From: Promethearchaeota archaeon
GTDB lineage: Archaea > Asgardarchaeota > Heimdallarchaeia > Hodarchaeales > Hodarchaeaceae
Reading direction: 5' to 3'
Length of the DNA: 64,000 nucleotides
Assembly (NCBI GenBank): GCA_048938105.1
Contig: JBHLMN010000027.1
Span: 1 to 64,000, forward strand
The notes under the pieces were generated by a model. That model was not told the DNA's origin. It did no database searches and was given only the letters and a program-made list of their open reading frames with translations. The first letter of the stretch is position 1. Each line of letters begins with the position of its first letter. Position numbers and translations under genes: made by a program. Below, one piece after another: positions 3,213-15,698 of this stretch.

Positions 3213-5549
3213 CTATTTACATCTTCGTTTGTAAGCCATACTAACAATGAATATAGTGAAAAATCCAATAATAAAATCTATTCCAGGAGTATTTTGGCTA
3301 GTTTCCTCAGTGTCTTCGGAAGAAGTACCCATCGATGTACCTGTAGTAATAGCAGCAGTTGTAGTAGAAGAAGTAGTAGTAGTAGTATCGATCGTAGTAT
3401 CTGTAGTGGTTTCGGAAGTAGGGGGAGGAGGAGGAGATGAACCAGGTGTTGGTGTATCACTAGCAGAAAAATCAGCAGAGTTGTTATTTGTATCCGTGTT
3501 ATATACATCACGAGTCAAAGAGTAGCCAGAATCAACATCTAAAGTAGGAGTACCCTCAAGGCAGCCAGTTGACACTCCTCCAGTATCCCCATATTGAAGG
3601 GCATCTATCACGGTTTTGGTAGTATTGTCAACCAAACGGACACCATCAGGACCGTTTTGAAGATTAGCTCCAGGGTCGATCTGATCATAATTATCTACAG
3701 TATCATCTTGAGCAAGCACGTAGTAATCTTCTCCCTCAATCTCACCAGTGAGATCAATGAGAATGTAAGTTTCTTCATTAGCACCATTCACACCTTCGAG
3801 GATAATATCATGTTGGTCATCATTCAAATTGATCTTCGCTGACCCAGAACTGAAGATTTCAATGAAACAGCCAGTATCTATTGAAACGGTATCATATAAA
3901 ACTTCAGTTATTTTTAATAAACTTACATCGGGAATAATCCCAACAGCCCCAGGTGTTGGAATACTGGTGCCATAGAAATCTTGACTATTATCATCAGTAT
4001 CAGTATTCAGGTCATTTCGGCTAAGGGAATATCCTGGAAGGACATCCATTGCAGGAGTACCTTCAAGGCAACCAGTCGACACTCCTCCAGTATCCCCATA
4101 TTGAAGGGCATCTATCACGGTTTTAGTAGTATTATCAACCAAACGGACACCATCAGGACCGTTTTGAAGATTAACTCTAGGGTCAATCTGATCATAATTA
4201 TCTACAGTATCATCTTGGGCAAGTACATAGTAATCTTCTCCCTCAATCTCACCAGTGAGATCAATGAGAATGTAAGTTTCTCCATTAGCACCATTCACAC
4301 CTTCAAGGATGATATCTTTTTTGCTATCATCTAGATTGATTATTGTAGAACCTACATTATAGATTTCAACAAAGCAACCTGAGTCAGAGCTAATTGAGTC
4401 GTAAAAAACTTCACTTACTACCAAGCTAAGATCAGAAATAATATTACTTACTTCCCCAGGAGTAGCGGTTATAGTTTGATAGAAATCCTCACTATTATTA
4501 TTAGTATCAATATTCAGGTCATCACGTGTCAACGAGTATCCAGAATCAACATCCATTGTAGGAGTACCCTCAAGGCAACCAGTTGACACTCCTCCAGTAT
4601 CCCCATATTGAAGGGCATCTATCACGGTTCTGGTAGTATTGTCAACCAAACGGACACCATCAGGACCGTTTTGAAGATCAGCTCCAGGGTCAATCTGATC
4701 ATAATTATTCACAGTATCATCTTGGGCAAGTACATAGTAATCTTTTCCCTCAACCTCACCGCTGAGATCAATGAGAATGTAAGTTTCTCCAGTAGCGCCA
4801 TTCACACCTTCGAGGATGATATCATGATGGTCATCATTCAAATTGATCTTCGCTGACCCAGAATTGAAGATTTCAATGAAACAGCCAGTATCTATTGAAA
4901 CGGTATCATATAAAACTTCAGTTATTTTTAATAAACTTACATCAGGAATAATTCCAACAGCTCCAGGTGTTGGAATACTGGTGCCATAAAAATCTTGGCT
5001 ATTATCACCAGTATCAGTATTCAGGTCATTTCGGCTAAGGGAATATCCTGGAAGGACATCCATTGCAGGAAAACCTTCAAGACAACCAGTCGACACTTCT
5101 CCAGTATCCCCATATTGAAGGGCATCTATTATGGTTTTAGTAATATTATCAACCAAACGGACACCATCAGGACCATTTTGAAAATTAGCCCCTTCATCAG
5201 TTTGATCTGGAGTAAAATCAACTCCACTTTGGGCAACAACATAATAAGATCCTGCTGCAACAGTACCAGTAAGATCAATCGTGACATACACAGTTCCAGT
5301 AGCACCATTTACTCCCTCAACAATGATATCATGATTAATATCATCAAGGTCTACTGTTGTGGAACCTACGTTATAGATTTCAATGAAGCAACTCGTATCA
5401 GTCCCGATTGAATCATAAAAGATTTCACTAATAATAAGGTTTGAATAATCAGTAGATTGACTATTAACAATAAATATGGTTGTTGAAATCAAGAGGAAAA
5501 AAACAGATAAATATAGAATTGAGTTATTAAATCTCTTCATTTTACACAA
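3213..5549 (-). CDS. Surface protein with four lamin-tail-like (LTD) domains, Pro/Thr linker and PG-CTERM sorting signal
   Basis: Signal peptide; four repeats ISEIFYD...FIEIYN...LQNGPDGVRL...IDALQYG...SL.R...DT.DNS.DF...PTPG; C-terminus TPG-hydrophobic helix-KRRCK. Confidence 0.85.
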   Translation of the reverse strand: MCKMKRFNNSILYLSVFFLLISTTIFIVNSQSTDYSNLIISEIFYDSIGTDTSCFIEIYNVGSTTVDLDDINHDIIVEGVNGATGTVYVTIDLTGTVAAGSYYVVAQSGVDFTPDQTDEGANFQNGPDGVRLVDNITKTIIDALQYGDTGEVSTGCLEGFPAMDVLPGYSLSRNDLNTDTGDNSQDFYGTSIPTPGAVGIIPDVSLLKITEVLYDTVSIDTGCFIEIFNSGSAKINLNDDHHDIILEGVNGATGETYILIDLSGEVEGKDYYVLAQDDTVNNYDQIDPGADLQNGPDGVRLVDNTTRTVIDALQYGDTGGVSTGCLEGTPTMDVDSGYSLTRDDLNIDTNNNSEDFYQTITATPGEVSNIISDLSLVVSEVFYDSISSDSGCFVEIYNVGSTIINLDDSKKDIILEGVNGANGETYILIDLTGEIEGEDYYVLAQDDTVDNYDQIDPRVNLQNGPDGVRLVDNTTKTVIDALQYGDTGGVSTGCLEGTPAMDVLPGYSLSRNDLNTDTDDNSQDFYGTSIPTPGAVGIIPDVSLLKITEVLYDTVSIDTGCFIEIFSSGSAKINLNDDQHDIILEGVNGANEETYILIDLTGEIEGEDYYVLAQDDTVDNYDQIDPGANLQNGPDGVRLVDNTTKTVIDALQYGDTGGVSTGCLEGTPTLDVDSGYSLTRDVYNTDTNNNSADFSASDTPTPGSSPPPPPTSETTTDTTIDTTTTTSSTTTAAITTGTSMGTSSEDTEETSQNTPGIDFIIGFFTIFIVSMAYKRRCK
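3440..5445. repeat. Four 507-bp tandem intragenic repeats with A-B-A-B pattern
   Basis: CCAGTATCCCCATATTGAAGGGCATCTAT recurs at 3580, 4087, 4594 and 5101. Confidence 0.9.
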
Positions 5550-5825: not shown

Positions 5826-6515
5826 TTGATTAATATGTCTGGAAAAGAATTTATTGGAAGTATTGCTGTTTCCCTCCTTGCTATAGGAGCGATAACTCTT
5901 TTTGTATTGCCACAACTCTATCCAGTAATCCAAGCTGGTACTGACGACACCCAAACGGACATTTCTTCCCTTAAATCTGATGTAGAAGAGATACAATCAG
6001 ATATTACAGATCTCCAATCTGAATCTAATGGGATTTTACTGCAAACAAAAAAATTAGTTACAAATGATCATGCAGAAATAACGGAAGAAGACACTACCTT
6101 ACAGTTAATGAATAATACCTCGTTAGTAATCACAGTTCAACAAGGCTCTAGGTTAAACGCACGATTTTCTGGTGTTTTTCGGTTAGCTATGAAATCTTTA
6201 GAAGTTAAACATGCAGATTATAAAATTACATTAATGCTTCAAGGAGTTACTGGCCAAACAACACATATTTCTTACTGGGACTACCAAGGCACGACAACCA
6301 ACAGCCTATATTTAACTTATTCAGTCTACATTGAATTATTAACAGATAGCTTAGATGCAGGAACGTATACAATTGCAGTGTGGTGGCAATCGTTGGAGGA
6401 TTACCATCCGTCTGATCCTTTAATATATAGTCGGCTTTATGCAAGTGATATTGATAATGTTGTACAATATAATGTCTACTCGAGAACAATAATTGTACAA
6501 GAACTAAGTGCATAA
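5826..6515 (+). CDS. Membrane-anchored protein with short coiled coil and beta-rich domain
   Basis: N-terminal TM, heptad stretch ISSLKSDVEEIQSDITDLQ, beta-rich C-terminus. Confidence 0.7.
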   Translation: MINMSGKEFIGSIAVSLLAIGAITLFVLPQLYPVIQAGTDDTQTDISSLKSDVEEIQSDITDLQSESNGILLQTKKLVTNDHAEITEEDTTLQLMNNTSLVITVQQGSRLNARFSGVFRLAMKSLEVKHADYKITLMLQGVTGQTTHISYWDYQGTTTNSLYLTYSVYIELLTDSLDAGTYTIAVWWQSLEDYHPSDPLIYSRLYASDIDNVVQYNVYSRTIIVQELSA

Positions 6516-6545: not shown

Positions 6546-9203
6546 TCAAGAAAATCCTGTATCCCCAAATTGATCTATTGCTTGAATAAGGACTTCAGGT
6601 ATTTTATCGATTGACTTCAACTTAATAGAATGTCCATTCATTGTATCTTTTAAAACTTGATTCGCCTCTCCCCATATTTTACCGTGAGATGCTCCTAAAT
6701 ATTGAACTCTTAGATCAGCAAGTCGTTCAGCATGTTTTTTAACTACATCCATTCCCTCTGCAAAACCATAATCACTGAGTAGAAATATCATTTTAAACTC
6801 GCTTTGAGTCATTTCTTCGAATTCTGAAGTAATCCATCGTAAAGCAGCATCTACTTGCGTACCCCCTTTAGCTTTTAAGTCTAATAAATCATCAGCAACT
6901 TCATCTAAATCTCTTTCCTGTTTAAATCCTTTTACAACATGGGTACTTGATTCAAAAAGTGCAATTGCTATTTCCTCAGATTTTAATTTACCAAGAAGCA
7001 TAACTACAGCAATAGCACATACAGCCAATTCTCCACCACTCATAGATCCACTTATATCAATAAGCACTCCAAAAGCGGCTCTGCCTTTTCCAGTATCATA
7101 AACAAACAAATCATCTTCAGTCACCTGATCTAATGTTTTCCCTGCATTAATAATTGAATCAAGAGTCGCTTCGATATCTAATAAATCTAAATCATCACCA
7201 GCTAAATAAGGTCGTGTGCGATTTTGAGGTATTAATCCCTTATCTATAGAACCAGTACCTCGATTAATCCAATCCATTGCAAGATCAAGAAGGGCATCTT
7301 TGGCAATTTCTTTGATTTTTTCTCTTAAACTCCCTCGAAAAGTGTGTCGATGTGTGAACCATTGTTTTAGAAGATTATCCCCTGTTCCTATTCCTTTATA
7401 ATTTAAGCTTTCAGTTGCAAAATCCTCAGGTACACTTTGACTAGCAGTTCCTAAGTTCATTGCGAGTAAAGCGGCCATCCCTTCTTTATTACGGTTTTTA
7501 TGAGCCTGTTGAGCTAAATTTTTTATAATATTATTAGTTGCTCTTTGTTTTGGAATTTTTTTTGCGAGTAAGCGATAACGTTTTGGATCACTAACATTTT
7601 GCTGTATCATTTCTTTTAGTTGAGTTAAGGAGTCCCCAATTCTATCATAAATATCATCAGGATGTACACCAAGTCGGGTACCATGAGCAACAAGCCGAGG
7701 TACATCCTGTATCTTGACATCAGCGTTCAAAAATTGATCTAACATGGGTAAGAATTGGTCTGTATTTATTACTTGATCCATCATTTCTGATGCGAACGAT
7801 GAGGAAAGCTTAGATGCGATCGGATTACTTAAACCTTCTAACTGTCTGACTAAAGGAATAGAATGTAATATTTCATCAGTCACTTCTTGTAATGTGTCAG
7901 ATCGTCCTTTGATTTCCTCAATATTTGATTTAAAGCTTTCTAAATGACGATTAAACGCCTCTTGCGCTATATCTTCCCAACGATTACATTGTACAAAATT
8001 ATCTACTAATTCTTGTAATGTGGGAGATTGGGTGAGACTATCAATCCAATTTCCAAAGATCTGCTCATGTAATGATTTATCAAATGTGTCTTGAAGCCAA
8101 TCAGCTGCCTGCAATGATCGACCAACATTTTCAATTGCAGATGATTTGATAAGTTCATCTGGAGGTTTGATCCATTCTTGAAATCCGTCTAAGATTTCAG
8201 AGAAATCAGTAAGATTAGTTGCTCTGCTTATTCCCGTTTGTTGAAAATCTGCTAGTTTCTGAGGATCAATATGAAAATCATCAGTTTTCATATAGGGGGA
8301 TAAGTATTTGAGAGTTTTCCCGATGACTCTAGCGGTTCCATGATCTAGTATATCATTTAGATGGTTTTGTAAGGTTTGTTGAGCAGTAGAAGTACCCCCA
8401 CCTGCAAGTGCTGAAGCTAGTTCCCATGGTTGTACTGTTTCCTTCTGAAGTAATTCAGAAAACCCAGCTTTACATCCATGATAAAGATGATCAGGAGATA
8501 AATCACCAACCTGACCTCGCAGCATTTCTTGGATGAATTCTTTTGCGGTTGATATTGAAGTCGCATTTACTGCTTGAAGCTCCGCTGGGCCACCATAAAG
8601 ATTTATTAATTCACCAAGACTTATATCTGAACCTTCTTCAGATGTTAAAAGATTTTCAAAAAGAGTAAAAGCTTTAAAATCATCAAAATCATTCTCAAGG
8701 AGACTATCAAAATCAGAGAGATCATCTAAAGCGTTGATATCGACATCTAATTAGGCAAGATCGTTTAAAATCATCTGTGTTGGATCAACGGATTGCTGTT
8801 GTTGCTGAGATTTGATTTGAGGTTGTGTTTGTTGCTGGGGAGGCCCTGGTTGGATTCGTTTTTGAGGTTGATTTCTTCGTTTCCGGGATTTCGTTCCTTT
8901 TTTTGCCCTAGGAAATAGAATTTCATGAGCAATCCTTTCAGCAATATCTTGATCTTCATAGGGAGTGTTAAAAACCGCTGCTTCAATATAATCTCTTGGA
9001 CTTAAAGTGTTCATACGAAAGTAACGAGCAGATAAAAATTTCGGGATTGCTAACGTGGTTCTAATACTTGGAACATGTGAGATATTGGGAATTTTCCTTA
9101 ATCGAGTAACAAATTCAATTGAAAAAGTAATGGGGGACCAACCAACAACCGAATCGTTTTGAAATGAAATCTCTGAAACAGTTTTCTTGGTTATTTTGCT
9201 CAT
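6546..9203 (-). CDS. AAA-lid + Q/P linker + acidic region + vWA (MIDAS) protein, interrupted by one in-frame TAA at 8753-8751
   Basis: ORFs 8751-9203 and 6546-8525 share a frame, and the 75 codons between them are open (LDVDINALDDLSDFDSLLENDFDDF...). MIDAS residues DISGS, KGGT and LLSD are present. Confidence 0.8.
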
Positions 9204-9207
9204 TTAG

Positions 9208-10125
9208 TCACCCAGTTGTTCCTAATACTCTCTTAAGTAAACTGGAAACATATTTCTTGGCATCACGTCCTGGTTTCATCTTAATTGATTCAGTTAGAAC
9301 TAATTTCGCACTTTGAGCTAATGTGGTATTATCTAAAGGTTTATTCAAACGCTTAGCTCTCTCTGATCCTAATCTAGCAAGTCCTATTGAACTCCGAATA
9401 GAGGCTGGTAATTCTACTGCAGGATCATCACGTGTTTGATGGACTAATTCAAGAACTAATTCTATTGTTGATGGATTCAAAGAATATTCTGGACACCGAG
9501 TTTGGATGATTTGTTGTTCAATGGGTTTTTTGGGGTAATCAAGGTGGATCCAGACCTTCACTCGATCCTTTATAGCTGAAGGAAGGCGCCTTGTACCACG
9601 CATTTCAGCAGGATTCATTGCTGCAATTAAGTAAAATTCTGGGTCAACATCATACCAAGTTTTGAGAGAAGGGATATATAATTTACGCTCTTCTAAGGCA
9701 TCTAAGAGGGAGTTCAGAACATACTCGTCTCCCCGATTCAATTCATTAGCTAGGAATACTCCTCCTCCTAAGGTAGAAAGTGTAAATGGACCTGGAATGA
9801 ACGCATCCACAGAAAATCCATACTTGAAGACTAAAGTCGGATCAAATGATCCAATTAGATTTGATGGACGAACGAGGTCACTAAATGTGACCCAATTGAA
9901 TGGTTTATCAAGATCATTTGCGAATTTACGACATAAGGCTGTTTTTCCTGATCCTACAGGCCCAATCAGCCCAACAAATAGTTCAGCATTATACGCATCC
10001 ATCATTGCATTATAAGCTTCTTTATATTGTCCTTCTAGGACTATTTTTTCTTCAGTTTTAAGCTGTTTACTTTCTTTTTCATGTAATAATTTGATATAAT
10101 CTAACATTAATTGTTCCTCACTCAT
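9208..10125 (-). CDS. MoxR-family AAA+ ATPase
   Basis: Walker A GPVGSGKT, Walker B variant FLANELNR, IAAMNP, LPSAIKDR, LDYP, SIR lid motif. ATG at 10125 overlaps the upstream stop; the track starts it at 10167. Confidence 0.9.
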   Translation of the reverse strand: MSEEQLMLDYIKLLHEKESKQLKTEEKIVLEGQYKEAYNAMMDAYNAELFVGLIGPVGSGKTALCRKFANDLDKPFNWVTFSDLVRPSNLIGSFDPTLVFKYGFSVDAFIPGPFTLSTLGGGVFLANELNRGDEYVLNSLLDALEERKLYIPSLKTWYDVDPEFYLIAAMNPAEMRGTRRLPSAIKDRVKVWIHLDYPKKPIEQQIIQTRCPEYSLNPSTIELVLELVHQTRDDPAVELPASIRSSIGLARLGSERAKRLNKPLDNTTLAQSAKLVLTESIKMKPGRDAKKYVSSLLKRVLGTTG

Positions 10126-10648
10126 TTGAATCCTTACTAAAAAAATGTTCAGTTCTAGTGGGCTCAATGACTTCGGGTAATTCTAACTTAATCTTCTGAC
10201 ACTCTTGAATGATCTTATTAAATTCTCCTTGACTCGCAACTTTTCGCTGTTTAGAGAAATCTAAATGCATTAAGATTTGTTTACCGTAATAAGTGTCCAT
10301 CATTTCAGTAATATAATATCTAACTCCAGAACGTGATCCCTTCTTTACAATCTTGATATTTGATAATTCCTTAAGTCTAGCTAATGTTAATAATTTGTTT
10401 AGAATTGGCCAGGAAGTTTGAGTACTGAATTTTTGGTTAAAGGAGGGATTCTCTTCTAACTTTTCATTTAGAAATTGTAAAATTATTCGTTGAATCTTTG
10501 CTGTCACAAGCTGAATATTATTCTCGGTTGAAATATTACTTGGAAGACGAGTCTTTATTTCTCCTAAGCTAATTAATGGTTCATTCGTTTTTTGGGAGAA
10601 ACTATTAACTTCTTCTACAAAATCCATGATTATGTCATCAAATGCCAT
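10118..10648 (-). CDS. Hypothetical soluble protein in the Rad50-MoxR operon
   Basis: ATG at 10648 after GAGGGA; coupled to both neighbours. Confidence 0.7.
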   Translation of the reverse strand: MAFDDIIMDFVEEVNSFSQKTNEPLISLGEIKTRLPSNISTENNIQLVTAKIQRIILQFLNEKLEENPSFNQKFSTQTSWPILNKLLTLARLKELSNIKIVKKGSRSGVRYYITEMMDTYYGKQILMHLDFSKQRKVASQGEFNKIIQECQKIKLELPEVIEPTRTEHFFSKDSNE

Positions 10649-10658
10649 TAAAATCCCT

Positions 10659-13178
10659 CTAACTTGTTTCAATCATTTGTTTACTATATTTCCCGTCCCT
10701 GATTATTTTTATCCGATTCCCTTTAACTGTCCCAGTATTCTGATGTGTTATAAGGAACAGCTGATTAGTAATGTTTAAATTATCCATTTTTGATAACAAT
10801 TCTTTCCTATGTTGGATATCTAATCCATAAGTTGGTTCATCAAGTAATAAGAAGTTAGTAGATCCAGCCATTCTGGCGATGGCAAACTTAAAGGCTAACC
10901 CCAATAACAACTGATGTCCTCCCCCCTGACAAGCATGTGCAGGCACTTCTCTTCCAATATCAATAGGTTTCACATTAATTACATATCTCTTCGGATCGAT
11001 AGAGAGAGTTTGATATTCGTCCGTTATTCCTGATAACTTATCATGCATTTGTAGTGTATCTGAGGCTAGTGTGGATGTGGCATGTTCCCTTAAGTGGTGT
11101 TGAAGTTCTTTAAATCCTTTACTGACTTGTCGATACTTTTTAGCGCTTTCTTTTTTATAATATAAATTGTCTACTTCTTTATTAATTCGTGCGATTTCCT
11201 TTCTTACATTGTTTAACCTTTTCTTCAATTTATTATTGTCTTCTTCTATCCTCGATTTAGTAGATTGTGCATTTTCTATATCATTATCTGCTTTAATAAT
11301 AACAACATTGTAGGCATTCTCTAATCGATGGAATTCTTCTGATAATAATGTAAGAGATTCAACCTTCTCTAAGATTTCAGTACTAACCTTATACTTCGAT
11401 ATTGGTTTGGGCTTTATTTCTGAAAAATCGAACTCCTTAATTTGCAAATCAGGAAAAAGGTTAGAATGATTTAAATTGAATTCTTGAAATCGAGTAAAAT
11501 AAACTTGGATTTCATGAAGCAAAGTTTCATGGGTGGTGACAATATTACTCTCCAACTCTTCTATTTCAGCTATAATATCGGTAATTTTCTTTGAATATGT
11601 ATTATATTGCTTTAATTTTGATTTAATATCAGTAATTGATATTAACAGTGATTTTTGCTTGTTGAGAAGCTCTGTTTTTTTCTTCTCCTCATCTTCTAAT
11701 TGATCACTTGTTGCCTGCAATTCAGTTTCAATATCGATAAGCCTATCCAAAAAGGAATTAATCTCATTTTTCAACTTTGATTCTTTGAATCTATCAATCC
11801 TTTTTTCAAAATCCTTTTTCTGCTCACTTAAACTCTTCAATTCCCCGTCAAGCTTTTTCAGCTGTTTTTTCCAATCAGAAATTTCCATTTTAACCTGATT
11901 TTGATCAATGATCTGGCCACAGGTTTCACATCTGGCATTCTCTCCCTTAAGTAAGCTTGATCTTCGGGTTAATCTACCAGATAAATCTCCTCTCGATTCA
12001 TTTTTCTTGTTAATTTCTGTTTGGATAGAAGTAATTTCTTTTTGACTATCTTGAATTAGCTGTTCTAACTGTGGATCGATGTCTTTGGTTTCATCTATTC
12101 TAGATAATACTGTCTCGTGTAAAGGAAGTTTTTTAGTTGGAATTTCGATTGAAAGGAGTGAAATATTCCTTGAAAGTTGTCCTTTCAACGCTCCTCGAGT
12201 TTCATTAAGTTTATTCATGATTTTATGGTGATTATTAATAGTAATTGTGCATTGTTCAATTGTTTGTTGAAATTGAATATTTTCTTGGGATATCTGTTTC
12301 AATCTGGACTCTAAAGCTTCTTTACTCCCATTTGTTGAAATAAATTCCTCCAATTCTATTTGGATTGCCTTTAACCTTTCCACATCTGATTCCCAACTCC
12401 GAACATTAGTTTCAAACTGATTTTTAGCTTTAATAAGATTTGATTTCAAGTTTTCTGCTTCTGAAATACTTTCTCTGATTGTTTGTAGAACTTTATATTT
12501 CTCAGTTATTTCCTTAAGTTCATCTTGAACTTTTATAACATCCTCCTCTATCTGTGATTGATCAGTTTTTAATTTGTTCAAGGATTCTTCCAGTATAGGT
12601 AAGCTACTGATCTCTTTCTCTTTTTCAAGTGCCATTGATCGTAATTCTTCATCTGCTATTACTGCAGCCGTCACACCTAAAACAATGTCTAATTTAGATG
12701 TTCCTTTGAGAATGCTAGAGATTTCTCCTTGTCGGAACAGAATTGATGTTTCAAATAATCTTTTAGTGATCCCAGTCAGGTCAAAAATCTTTCGTGCAAG
12801 ATCCTCTTCCCGATCTTGAAAATCTGAACTACATAAATACTTTTCATCGTTGTTCTCATTAATTTCTTTTAATGTAAAGTGCCCAATGACTTTTTTCTTT
12901 GATTGAGGAGGTATTTCATGAATCCTTTGTAAGCGGTAAATTCCATCCTTCCGTCCCTTAAATTCCATTTGAACGCCCATCATCTTCTTATTTGGACTCA
13001 TCAATTCACTTGGGGTTTTAAAGCCAGTAACATTGCCAAATAAACAGTATTCCATGGCATAAAATATGGTTGTTTTTCCTACATTGTTGTTACCCTCCAA
13101 AATATTTAGGCCTTTTGTAAAACTTATTTTCTCATCTTTAAATCGGCGAAAATTTCTCAACCAGATGTTCTTGATCAT
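10659..13178 (-). CDS. Rad50/SbcC-like SMC-family ATPase with zinc hook
   Basis: Walker A GNNNVGKTT, Q-loop FRQGEI, coiled coils with central CETC, divergent signature CQGGGHQ, Walker B/D-loop LLLDEPTYGLD, H-loop ITH. Confidence 0.9.
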   Translation of the reverse strand: MIKNIWLRNFRRFKDEKISFTKGLNILEGNNNVGKTTIFYAMEYCLFGNVTGFKTPSELMSPNKKMMGVQMEFKGRKDGIYRLQRIHEIPPQSKKKVIGHFTLKEINENNDEKYLCSSDFQDREEDLARKIFDLTGITKRLFETSILFRQGEISSILKGTSKLDIVLGVTAAVIADEELRSMALEKEKEISSLPILEESLNKLKTDQSQIEEDVIKVQDELKEITEKYKVLQTIRESISEAENLKSNLIKAKNQFETNVRSWESDVERLKAIQIELEEFISTNGSKEALESRLKQISQENIQFQQTIEQCTITINNHHKIMNKLNETRGALKGQLSRNISLLSIEIPTKKLPLHETVLSRIDETKDIDPQLEQLIQDSQKEITSIQTEINKKNESRGDLSGRLTRRSSLLKGENARCETCGQIIDQNQVKMEISDWKKQLKKLDGELKSLSEQKKDFEKRIDRFKESKLKNEINSFLDRLIDIETELQATSDQLEDEEKKKTELLNKQKSLLISITDIKSKLKQYNTYSKKITDIIAEIEELESNIVTTHETLLHEIQVYFTRFQEFNLNHSNLFPDLQIKEFDFSEIKPKPISKYKVSTEILEKVESLTLLSEEFHRLENAYNVVIIKADNDIENAQSTKSRIEEDNNKLKKRLNNVRKEIARINKEVDNLYYKKESAKKYRQVSKGFKELQHHLREHATSTLASDTLQMHDKLSGITDEYQTLSIDPKRYVINVKPIDIGREVPAHACQGGGHQLLLGLAFKFAIARMAGSTNFLLLDEPTYGLDIQHRKELLSKMDNLNITNQLFLITHQNTGTVKGNRIKIIRDGKYSKQMIETS

Positions 13179-13189
13179 ATTCTATCCCT

Positions 13190-13426
13190 CTATTCAGTAA
13201 ATACGTCATCCAAAGATTTTCTACCGAAAATTTCTTCTATACGTGAATGAAGCAGATTTTTGGCACCAATGTTTAGATTTCCTGTTTTAGTAAGGTTTTG
13301 ATCATTGTCAAGCAGGAACTGAATGAAGTCAAAGATCTGGATAGCTTTCTCAGTGAGATCAGGATTACTAGCAAAAAGTTCAGTTTCATTTAGAAAGTTA
13401 AGAATAATCCGATTAGATTGGCTCAT
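13190..13426 (-). CDS. Small helical protein, first gene of the Rad50-like operon
   Basis: 78 aa; ends 11 nt before the ATPase start. Confidence 0.65.
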   Translation of the reverse strand: MSQSNRIILNFLNETELFASNPDLTEKAIQIFDFIQFLLDNDQNLTKTGNLNIGAKNLLHSRIEEIFGRKSLDDVFTE

Positions 13427-13904: not shown

Positions 13905-15698
13905 TTGTCTTCCAGGAGAAAGAACATGTTAAGCCTTGAACGAACTCATATTCTTCCTGAAAAAGATCTTCCTGATATAAATGAGTTATTAGAGGAGGGA
14001 AAGCATTTGAGTCATGAAGTTACCATTGGTTCTTGTCCTTTTTTAACCACATATGATGTGAAGTCTGAGAATGAGTATAAACGCCAGCGAGCAGCTGAAG
14101 GTACAATTATGCTTCATGGACAGATTGGATATCGAAGTCTTACGAAGAGTAAATCGGCTTACTCTAAGATTTATGAACAAATCGAAGCTGCTGGTTATAG
14201 AATAGATCGATATGGAATATGTCTAGATTGGAGTATGGGGTATCCTGCTGCTCTTCGAGCAAATATGCCTCAAGGAACTGGTTTAATACTTGGAAAACCT
14301 GAAGATTTCATAGATCTAACCCATTCTGCACCTGTTGCTCCTCATTTTGGAGATTTCGTCATTGGAACACCTGCAGCAGTTGAGAACACAGTAAACGCCC
14401 TAAAAGCTGGCTCAACAAGCATTGGTAACATTGGTCAATATTTTACCTTCCGCTTACCGAAATGGCACGATGATGTTAGAACAACAGCTGAAACTGTAAA
14501 GGCCATGGTTCTTTGTGCCAATCAACCAGTTGACATTCTGATCCATTCAAATTTAGATGACGGATTTGCTGCTTTATTTTACGACATGTCTTGTAGTATT
14601 GGAGCAGTGCTAATAGAGAAGTACATTATTGAGGATTTAATCGGTGGGCTAGTTTCGCATTGTTATGGCCACACGTTCTCTGATCCTCTGACTCGATTAG
14701 CGTTCCAACGAGCTTTGGCTCGGGTAACAAAAACCCCTGGAAGTATGATTTATGGTAATACAACTATTTATGTTGCTGGGGAAGTGGAAAATTACGCCAA
14801 TCTTGCCAGTTATCTATTGGTTGATATCATCGCTCAAAATGACCTACCAACAGGTCATGGACTCAATCCTGTTCCCGTTACAGAAGCAATGAGGATACCT
14901 GAAATCGATGAGATTGTGAATGCTCATCTCTTCGCTAACAGATTAATCCGCAGAGCTGAAGGTTTTAAGCACCTATTTGCCATTGATATGGCAGATACCA
15001 CTGCAGAAATGCTGGTTAAAGCAGGTCAGCGTTTCAAAGAACGTGTCCTAAATGGTTTCAAGGAAGCTGGAATCGACATCAACAATCCTTTCGAAATACT
15101 TCTAGCAATCCGTCGAATTGGAGCTAAACAATTAGAGGAATTATTTGGTCCAGGAAAGCCTCATGAAACTTCTTTACGAAAACGAATACCTGTTGTTCAG
15201 GCTACTCCTATAGCTGAACTTGAAACAAAAAGTAGAAGGATAATCACCTCATTTGATCCCTCTGACCGAATAAAATTACAACAAACTATATCTGGAATAT
15301 GTGTTGCTTGTACTGATGTGCATGAATACGGAAAAATCCTTCTGGAACAAGTAATGAAACTATTAGGACTTGAAGTAATTGATGCTGGAGTCAGCGTTGA
15401 TCCAGATGTTGTAGCTAAATGTGCCAAGGCAAATAAAGCCCAATATATTGCTATCAGCACCTACAACGGTATAGCTCTATCCTATCTTCAATCATTATAT
15501 CAAGAGATGAAACGAATTGATTTTGATATACCCATATTCATTGGTGGAAAACTTAACCAGATCCCAGAGGACAGCCCAACAAGCCTTCCTGTTGATGTAA
15601 CTGATGAACTGAGAGCCATGGGTGCTGTAGTCTGTCATCGAATCGAAGATATGTTAGAAAGCCTTCTGAAAAATCAAAGGAGACTAAAAAATGATTAA
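13905..15698 (+). CDS. Cobalamin-dependent mutase-like protein (2-methyleneglutarate mutase-like)
   Basis: C-terminal B12-binding domain DVHEYG...ISTYNG...FIGG. VPVTE..RIP..DEI and F.EAGID..NP segments resemble Mgm as I recall it. Confidence 0.7.
   Translation: MSSRRKNMLSLERTHILPEKDLPDINELLEEGKHLSHEVTIGSCPFLTTYDVKSENEYKRQRAAEGTIMLHGQIGYRSLTKSKSAYSKIYEQIEAAGYRIDRYGICLDWSMGYPAALRANMPQGTGLILGKPEDFIDLTHSAPVAPHFGDFVIGTPAAVENTVNALKAGSTSIGNIGQYFTFRLPKWHDDVRTTAETVKAMVLCANQPVDILIHSNLDDGFAALFYDMSCSIGAVLIEKYIIEDLIGGLVSHCYGHTFSDPLTRLAFQRALARVTKTPGSMIYGNTTIYVAGEVENYANLASYLLVDIIAQNDLPTGHGLNPVPVTEAMRIPEIDEIVNAHLFANRLIRRAEGFKHLFAIDMADTTAEMLVKAGQRFKERVLNGFKEAGIDINNPFEILLAIRRIGAKQLEELFGPGKPHETSLRKRIPVVQATPIAELETKSRRIITSFDPSDRIKLQQTISGICVACTDVHEYGKILLEQVMKLLGLEVIDAGVSVDPDVVAKCAKANKAQYIAISTYNGIALSYLQSLYQEMKRIDFDIPIFIGGKLNQIPEDSPTSLPVDVTDELRAMGAVVCHRIEDMLESLLKNQRRLKND

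Follow-up and report, generated by a model that had tools for sequence, protein, structure and literature searches.

What does a Rad50-like ATPase do in one operon with a MoxR ATPase and its von Willebrand factor A (vWA) partner? The question is raised by a stretch of 64,000 nucleotides (nt) from a Promethearchaeota archaeon (contig JBHLMN010000027.1 of GenBank assembly GCA_048938105.1, positions 1 to 64,000), hereafter called the window, in which five genes, designated A to E, follow one another head to tail from position 13426 to 6546. Rad50-family ATPases are known to work with a nuclease (Mre11 or SbcD), or in defence systems together with an effector, and MoxR-vWA motors are known to remodel metalloenzymes, Rubisco or ribosome precursors. 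An earlier reading of the window, made from its letters alone (the 'sequence-only reading'), had suggested that the two are combined here in an undescribed system of DNA sensing and protein remodelling, serving either defence or chromosome maintenance.

All five genes lie on the minus strand. Gene A (13190..13426) encodes a 78-amino-acid (aa) acidic helical protein of no known family, and gene B (10659..13178) an 839-aa ATPase of the ATP-binding cassette (ABC) type resembling Rad50/SbcC. Gene C (10118..10648) encodes 176 aa counted from the ATG at 10648, or 184 aa from an upstream TTG at 10672. Gene D (9208..10125) encodes a MoxR protein of the AAA+ class (ATPases associated with various cellular activities), of 305 aa counted from the ATG at 10125, or 319 aa from an upstream TTG at 10167. 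Gene E (6546..9203) comprises 884 codons of a vWA protein and one internal stop. The open reading frames (ORFs) found at these positions bear out the earlier description of five co-oriented genes with gaps of at most 11 nt or overlaps: A and B are 11 nt apart, B and C 10 nt apart (or overlapping by 14 nt), C and D overlap by 8 nt, and D and E are separated by 4 nt. The operon lies between a gene at 13905 that diverges from it and a convergent one that ends at 6515. No Mre11/SbcD, HerA or NurA was found within the 64 kb of the window, as had also been reported. The GC content of the cassette, 0.32-0.38, is close to that of the genome (about 0.35).

Homologues of gene B are few (24 clusters among 5.8 billion proteins), and every long contig that carries one has the same A-B-C-D-E order amid unrelated neighbours. 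In a reverse test, anchored on MoxR, 185,579 species genomes were scanned, and 49 loci of the cassette type were obtained. B and C were present in 37 of the 41 loci with enough upstream sequence, E in 33 of the 34 with enough downstream sequence, and all five genes in 28 of the 30 loci for which both flanks were available. The same order in 28 of 30 independent loci is more than chance, and we conclude that the five genes make up a self-contained unit, conserved and passed on together in two domains of life. The gene order thus proved to be conserved among archaeal genomes, where the sequence-only reading had asked for it, and in bacteria as well; the Rad50-like and MoxR-vWA genes are not unlinked in relatives. 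Carriers include Lokiarchaeia (among them the complete genome of Ca. Lokiarchaeum ossiferum), Thorarchaeia, Kariarchaeota, another Heimdall-group archaeon, many Myxococcota, and Gemmataceae. The exceptions to linkage are two poor or rearranged Loki contigs and a few Gemmataceae with a lone MoxR. This lone MoxR, almost identical to the cassette type and with no A, B, C or E nearby, was seen at L028:7250-8897 (after a MarR-like regulator), at L042:3242-4144 and at L064.

The cassette is nevertheless rare. In the same genus, searches of 20 genomes for gene B and of 19 for MoxR found neither, and a MoxR of at least 59% identity was present in about 10 of 300 sampled genomes of the phylum. This is the distribution of an accessory gene set. 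At one locus (L025:1-19571) the cassette is repeated three times in tandem with a period of ~8.36 kb, each unit being followed by a group II intron-type reverse transcriptase and containing a split vWA gene; a small circular element in concatemeric form, or an artefact of long-read assembly, may account for this arrangement.

A sister form of the operon, with a MoxR of 52-58% identity and no Rad50-like gene, occurs in about six further genomes. It comprises a ~250-aa protein, a 350-400-aa protein whose C-terminal half resembles C, a MoxR with the same variant Walker B motif (ANE, see below) and an 860-aa vWA protein; the upstream proteins had no match in Pfam. Its carriers are Hermod-, Jord- and Heimdall-type archaea, and Ca. 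Lokiarchaeum ossiferum holds it as a second copy. Sister loci were L069:6020-11472, L073:1811-7187, L075:6169-14428 and L072:7926-11086; at L075, an additional 1009-aa WD40 protein is encoded downstream. The MoxR tree places these sister forms, all of them from Asgard archaea, outside the cassette clade. Inside it, Loki and Thor sequences stand opposite a group in which Kari and Dive100 branch off, then the sequence of this window, then all bacteria (supports 99/95 and 97/94). As the bacterial copies are nested among Asgard ones, they are candidates for a transfer from archaea to bacteria. The Rad50-like tree did not resolve the direction of transfer, since branches to the canonical Rad50 outgroup measure 5-8 changes per site and the root is therefore unreliable. 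The suggestion of an Asgard origin of the cassette with transfer to bacteria thus comes from the MoxR tree only, and its direction should be held loosely.

Gene B is built like Rad50. Its ABC head is split between the two termini, and a long antiparallel coiled coil bears a zinc hook. It matches Pfam AAA_23 at 58 bits, and its matches in the PDB are Rad50 heads (E = 2e-13). Two NCBIfam Rad50 models scored well below their cut-offs (NF041034, 100.7 bits for a cut-off of 1000; NF003034, 99.6 bits for 700). With PADLOC, the best match was one Lamassu LmuB model (E = 9e-30, 102 bits), and models of Rad50, DndD, PbeC and GajA matched too. Walker A (GNNNVGKT), the Q-loop (RQGE, residue 149), Walker B (LLDEPT, residue 778), the D-loop (GLD) and the H-loop (LITH, residue 809) are kept across 40 sequences, and Walker B reads DEPT in all 38 full-length homologues. 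In the middle of the coiled coil lies the zinc-hook CxxC (CETC, residues 417-420, 11919..11930 on the minus strand), conserved as CxxCG in 38 of 38 full-length homologues. Gene B is therefore a Rad50-family ABC ATPase with a zinc hook, of which the catalytic motifs are intact save one: the ABC signature, normally LSGG[QE], is replaced by QGGGH (residues 751-755, 10914..10928, minus strand) within the stretch CQGGGHQ (residues 750-756). Since [QE]GGG is found in 37 of 38 homologues, with G752 to G754 invariant, the alignments identify this odd signature as a family-wide trait and not as decay, and the protein looks catalytically competent. That it senses DNA, as the earlier reading had it, would follow from its family membership alone. 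Asgard members measure 838-871 aa and bacterial ones 624-710 aa, the latter being shorter because their coiled coils are shorter. In a separate protein of 371 aa (P0048), a C-terminal part of a Rad50-like head (SMC_N) is joined to a full C domain, which is a true fusion of B and C or else a gene called across a frameshift.

Is gene B then the Rad50 of this organism? The earlier reading had advised looking for a separate canonical locus, and its proposal would fall if gene B were the only rad50 and mre11 lay elsewhere. Such a locus is present, and that objection does not hold: another contig of the genome (C15; L084:1640-11456) carries a canonical break-repair operon with NurA, HerA, Mre11, a 789-aa Rad50 and a MrfA/Hrq1-like helicase with an MZB zinc domain. 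Because this NurA-HerA-Mre11-Rad50 operon is separate and complete, gene B is an extra paralogue and not the only Rad50 of the genome. A ParA-like ATPase is encoded downstream of the same operon.

Mre11-Rad50 is also the only recurring neighbour of the cassette. In four Loki loci it directly precedes the cassette on the same strand; in another Loki clade (L053) Rad50 is convergent to the cassette, and on one metagenome contig a NurA-like/HerA/Mre11/Rad50/ligase cluster is divergent to it. No defence genes were seen in the flanks examined, which hold transporters, ribosomal proteins, UvrC, a glycosyl hydrolase, a B12 mutase and a lamin-tail-domain protein.

Gene D passed the Pfam cut-offs of AAA_5 (67 bits for a cut-off of 22) and AAA_3 (53 bits for 27), has a Walker A motif GPVGSGKT, and found MoxR (2r44), NorQ and CbbQ in a profile search of the PDB. 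On these matches it is a MoxR-class AAA+ protein of the CbbQ/NorQ/GvpN type. It is 65-73% identical to its bacterial homologues. Its Walker B motif reads FLANE (9742..9756, minus strand): the canonical hhhhDE pattern is changed from Asp to Asn, with the catalytic Glu kept, and in the AAA domains of midasin the residue aligned with this Asn is the Walker B Asp. As ANE is found in 51 of 53 family members, sister operons included, it can be regarded, from the alignment, as a trait of the family and not as decay. The sequence-only reading was thus right that both ATPases have altered motifs, CQGGGHQ and FLANE being present; the decay that this implied did not hold, since both variants run through the family and the other catalytic motifs are kept. 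A special kinship of gene D with midasin was considered and rejected, for the score of 104 bits was a sum over six AAA domains, and the best single domain (35 bits) scored below MoxR 2r44 (46 bits). Two Asgard families (f11 and f14) have a third MoxR paralogue of 40-46% identity to D that is nearly universal in them (53 of 76 and 57 of 68 genomes).

The vWA partner, gene E, adjoins D. Its product consists of an N-terminus resembling an AAA lid, a basic/QP/acidic linker, a helical solenoid of ~420 aa, and a C-terminal vWA domain with a metal ion-dependent adhesion site (MIDAS). The likeness of the N-terminus to a lid is weak (BLASTP 6e-4, hhalign E = 0.04). Pfam VWA_2 matched at 39 bits (cut-off 27). 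A model of the 734-aa part of the protein (predicted local distance difference test, pLDDT, 89.8) shows helices over residues 1-495 and the vWA domain at 500-734, and the best structural matches of the latter in Foldseek were NorD in the NorQD complex (4.6e-7), Rea1-MIDAS and MDN1-MIDAS. The MIDAS motif DISGS (DxSxS; 7044..7058, minus strand) is complete and reads DxSGS in 41 of 41 homologues; the invariant columns are D565, S567, S569, T631 and D660, the downstream Thr (in GGT) and Asp (in LSD) being invariant like the rest. D and E are a pair of the NorQ/NorD type, that is, an AAA+ ring plus a MIDAS adaptor.

Genes A and C had no match in Pfam, NCBIfam or PADLOC. Gene A is directly upstream of the Rad50-like gene in 39 loci and has a conserved core, Q[FY]LLDDDxNLTKTGNL..A+..L..R, with D40, T46 and E65 invariant. 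The family of gene C counts 99 representatives among 1.84 billion proteins. Its AlphaFold model is alpha/beta and of high confidence (pLDDT 90.7), for which Foldseek returned nothing in the PDB at E <= 0.001, and the best of 48,161 chains in VIA-align (the N-terminal domain of T4 UvsW, Z = 5.4) was under the noise level; feature and structure searches of the ESM Atlas gave sub-threshold rows only. Fusions of C-like domains in distant relatives (460-800 aa) contained no Pfam domains, and their contigs were too short for gene context.

At the C-terminus of gene C, residues 158-170 form the motif PEVIEPTRTEHFF (10139..10177, minus strand), which is predicted to be a docking peptide for lobe I of the Rad50-like head. 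Across the family this motif reads LPE..EPT.TE.FF, with P158, T164, E167 and F170 invariant. A complex of the B head (residues 1-230 and 650-839) with A and C was predicted, C being the partner scored. The interaction prediction score from aligned errors (ipSAE) was 0.63 (0.65, 0.63 and 0.58 in three runs), compared to 0.00 for the best control; of 80 solved complexes 58 reached that mark, and of 110 mismatched pairs 2 did. The runs had at least 61% of their contacts in common, and the pLDDT of the partner was at least 74. Predicted contacts link residues 161-170 and 102-109 of C with residues 6, 8, 66-70, 84-86, 100-102 and 114-120 of B. The B side includes the family-invariant G68, V69, R85, T102 and Y114, and the C side is invariant also. 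According to this model, the C-terminal peptide of C would bind lobe I of the B head on its conserved outer sheet.

The sister operons offer a check that is independent of the prediction: their gene C core is kept and the C-terminal motif is gone (40 of 43 cassette copies have it, compared to 0 of 3 Rad50-less sister copies). Taken with its controls, the prediction supports a physical coupling of C and B, short of demonstrating binding. As the predicted interface is the very motif that is missing from Rad50-less sisters, we propose to read gene C as an adaptor, the tail of which would hold the Rad50-like head. Its core, common to the sister systems, probably faces the MoxR-vWA motor.

How might such a machine work? 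We tentatively regard the cassette as an accessory operon in which a nuclease-free Rad50-like machine is coupled to a MoxR-vWA remodeller, for the handling of DNA ends or of clamps, a possibility that we favour while rating it somewhat short of probable. Dimers of B, with A and C bound, would hold or tether DNA as Rad50 does. C would connect this complex to a hexamer of D carrying one E adaptor, as in NorQ6-NorD1, and the ATP-driven movement of the ring would be passed on through the MIDAS domain. Two outcomes can be envisaged: either the Rad50-like clamp is opened, unloaded or reset, or proteins are pulled off the DNA that the clamp holds. The motor would thus stand where the canonical complex has its Mre11 nuclease, and its cellular role would be an accessory handling of DNA ends or breaks, not the killing of invaders. 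Repair is favoured over defence by four observations taken together: the lack of an effector (Pfam, PADLOC, NCBIfam and the structure searches of gene E revealed no domain of nuclease, protease, NADase or membrane type in the five proteins), the lack of defence genes in the flanks examined, the adjacency of Mre11-Rad50, and the host-like GC content. A more far-reaching version, in which an AAA+/MIDAS motor stands in for the Mre11 nuclease on a Rad50 machine, the clamp finds ends or blocked DNA, the C-tethered motor strips proteins or forces the clamp open, and the whole arose in Asgard archaea (which also have the Rad50-less sisters) before spreading to myxobacteria and planctomycetes, we consider doubtful.

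One further feature bears on the copy in this window. Gene E had been taken as one intact frame, which overlooked an in-frame TAA at 8751..8753 on the minus strand (read 8753..8751) that splits it into 150 and 734 codons. The next in-frame ATG, GTG or TTG is 75 codons further, at 8525. In homologues the position of the TAA is occupied by D, A, L or S, within the conserved motif IL.DLA-x-L..DLD, and gene E is conserved on both sides of it, with no additional stop or frameshift. A reassignment of the codon was rejected, because more long ORFs of this genome end in TAA than in any other stop (1261 of 2320). As the main stop codon, it is a nonsense codon or a sequencing error and not a case of recoding; judged by the homologues, it is one nonsense change or base error and not a natural gene boundary. 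This copy of gene E is therefore probably broken or mis-sequenced, and the premature stop means that the cassette of this genome may be inactive. A second damaged cassette of the Heimdall group was noted in the Dive100 archaeon (L041:5249-7437), where the Rad50-like gene consists of two overlapping ORFs with an apparent frameshift in the coiled coil. A 'TAA inside MoxR' in genome G195 is probably an artefact of an alignment extending past the start, for gene D has an open frame on that contig (L041).

It could be argued from this lesion that the cassette in the present genome is a decaying remnant without present function, an explanation that concerns this copy only and that we hold to be quite possible. 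It is favoured by a stop that falls within a conserved motif with no start nearby, by the use of the main stop codon of the genome, and by the failure to find the cassette in 19-20 genomes of the same genus. However, the lesion is a single one in 6.9 kb, every family-invariant residue is kept in both halves of E and in the other genes with no frameshift, and an identical picture would arise from an error in one base or from a minority variant in a metagenome assembly. Besides, decay of one copy says nothing on what the system is. As to the system itself, several points speak against a DNA-handling motor. The exchange of Ser for Gly in the signature of B and the Asn in Walker B of D may suggest slow or switch-like ATPases rather than motors. 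The binding of DNA by B and the contact of C with the D-E motor are steps that we infer. The complex prediction differed from the jobs on which its score was calibrated (four chains, a split head, and our own alignments). The adjacency of Mre11-Rad50 is limited to two Loki clades and one metagenome contig, is found neither in this window nor in any bacterial locus, and the four same-strand Loki loci, being one clade, count as one event. Finally, a patchy accessory distribution with spread across domains would fit defence too, and the best PADLOC match of gene B is a defence model.

These last points lead to the proposal of anti-phage or anti-plasmid defence, in which the Rad50-like ATPase would sense foreign DNA ends or structures as LmuB (Lamassu) or JetC (Wadjet) does, with MoxR-vWA as the output, for instance sequestering or remodelling an invader or host factor or activating a nuclease encoded elsewhere. 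The occurrence in Asgard archaea, Myxococcota and Gemmataceae, the lack of carriers among the genus genomes searched and their small number among the phylum genomes sampled, and the LmuB match are all in its favour; so are the tandem repeats with a reverse transcriptase at L025, which are maybe a small mobile element, the decay of some copies (the TAA in E here, the split B in L041), and the existence of MoxR-vWA pairs in conflict systems (PMC7159879). On the other hand, none of the five proteins has a nuclease, protease, NADase, membrane or other effector domain, PADLOC was blank for A, C and E and gave weak matches for D, and no examined flank resembles a defence island. PADLOC placed the cassette in no known defence system, as the earlier reading had supposed. 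A MoxR that is 65-73% identical across domains is, moreover, unlike fast-evolving defence genes, and defence appears unlikely to us. In a different explanation, MoxR-vWA merely assembles or matures the Rad50-like complex (zinc at the hook, building of B-A-C), which alone works in chromosome organisation or tethering. It would parallel NorQD, which inserts iron into nitric oxide reductase, and CbbQO, which reactivates Rubisco. The well-studied MoxR-vWA pairs of this class each serve a single dedicated client whose gene is close by (PMC9976466, PMC13036017); the vWA domain of E is closest to NorD, and the CxxC hook provides gene B with a metal site in 38 of 38 homologues. Yet canonical Rad50 and SMC (structural maintenance of chromosomes) proteins are not known to need such a chaperone, and D, E and a C-like protein persist in the sister operons, which have no Rad50-like client, so that we judge this chaperone role quite improbable. 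It differs from the coupled clamp and motor favoured above solely in the timing of remodelling, during assembly or during the working cycle. Of the DNA-sensing and protein-remodelling system that had been proposed, the physical link gained from the prediction of C-B coupling; as between defence and maintenance, neither an effector nor a defence-island context was seen, and Mre11-Rad50, in some Lokiarchaeia, is the only neighbour that recurs.

Comparison with known systems places the cassette among several of them. Gene B shares with Rad50-Mre11/SbcCD the split ABC head, the antiparallel coiled coil, the apical CxxC zinc hook and all motifs from Walker A through the Q-loop, Walker B and D-loop to the H-loop, but the cassette has no Mre11/SbcD, its signature is [QE]GGG in place of LSGG[QE], it scores ~100 bits where 700-1000 are required, and it has partners of its own, A and C. 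Midasin/Rea1 consists of six AAA_5 domains, a linker, a D/E-rich region and a MIDAS domain. The cassette resembles it in the AAA_5 class, in the order of parts (AAA, helical linker, acidic stretch, MIDAS) and in the structural matches of E to the Rea1 and MDN1 MIDAS domains; it differs in that ring and adaptor are separate proteins, and the single-domain score gives no special affinity. NorQ-NorD and CbbQ-CbbO, like D and E, consist of a ~300-aa AAA_5-type MoxR beside a long protein with a C-terminal MIDAS vWA domain. NorQD has been described as a MoxR/vWA complex that remodels its target, and the working model for NorQD and CbbQO, as set out in PMC13036017 and PMC9976466, is that of a MoxR hexamer with one vWA adaptor, the MIDAS gripping the client. 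In contrast, the putative client of the cassette is a Rad50-like ATPase and not a metalloenzyme or Rubisco, ANE is family-wide, there is an extra adaptor (C), and gene E has a ~420-aa solenoid, a lid-like N-terminus and an acidic linker.

Lamassu (LmuA-LmuB-LmuC) and Wadjet (JetABCD) are, like the cassette, accessory systems built around an SMC/Rad50-like ATPase. Unlike the cassette, they are not known to have a MoxR-vWA pair; in turn, PADLOC and Pfam found in the cassette neither an LmuA-type effector nor LmuC, and neither the JetA kleisin, the JetB KITE protein nor the JetD Toprim protein. The ternary conflict systems with a MoxR-vWA core (Kaur et al. 2020, PMC7159879) also combine MoxR and vWA with a third component, but they carry effector domains and VMAP or iSTAND partners. 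The bpMoxR model scored 18 bits on gene D, under its cut-off of 27, and the terms SMC, ABC and SbcC are absent from the text of that survey.

Two observations concern the surroundings of the cassette. About 1 kb past its 3' end, beyond the convergent gene (229 aa), a 778-aa protein with four lamin-tail-domain (LTD) stretches is encoded at 3213-5549 on the minus strand. A scan for sigma-70 promoters and terminators gave counts at the level of shuffled sequence, the sigma-70 model being uninformative for an archaeon.

The system had been called undescribed, and full-text searches combining MoxR, vWA, Rad50, ABC ATPase and Asgard gave no published description of the cassette, within a coverage that does not extend to a 2020 classification of ABC ATPases (NAR gkaa726), which could list the family. 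New here are the broken vWA gene, the predicted interface between the C tail and the Rad50 head that is missing from the sisters, the counts of linkage anchored on MoxR, and a tree in which bacteria are nested among Asgard archaea, which makes the cassette a candidate for archaea-to-bacteria transfer. A Rad50-like ATPase and a MoxR-vWA pair in one conserved operon would mean a new way of handling DNA-bound complexes, by ATP-driven remodelling instead of cutting. If the more far-reaching version outlined above were true, the control of SMC-type rings by an AAA+/MIDAS motor would be an archaeal invention older than eukaryotes. The cassette widens the DNA-maintenance repertoire of the prokaryotes most closely related to eukaryotes.

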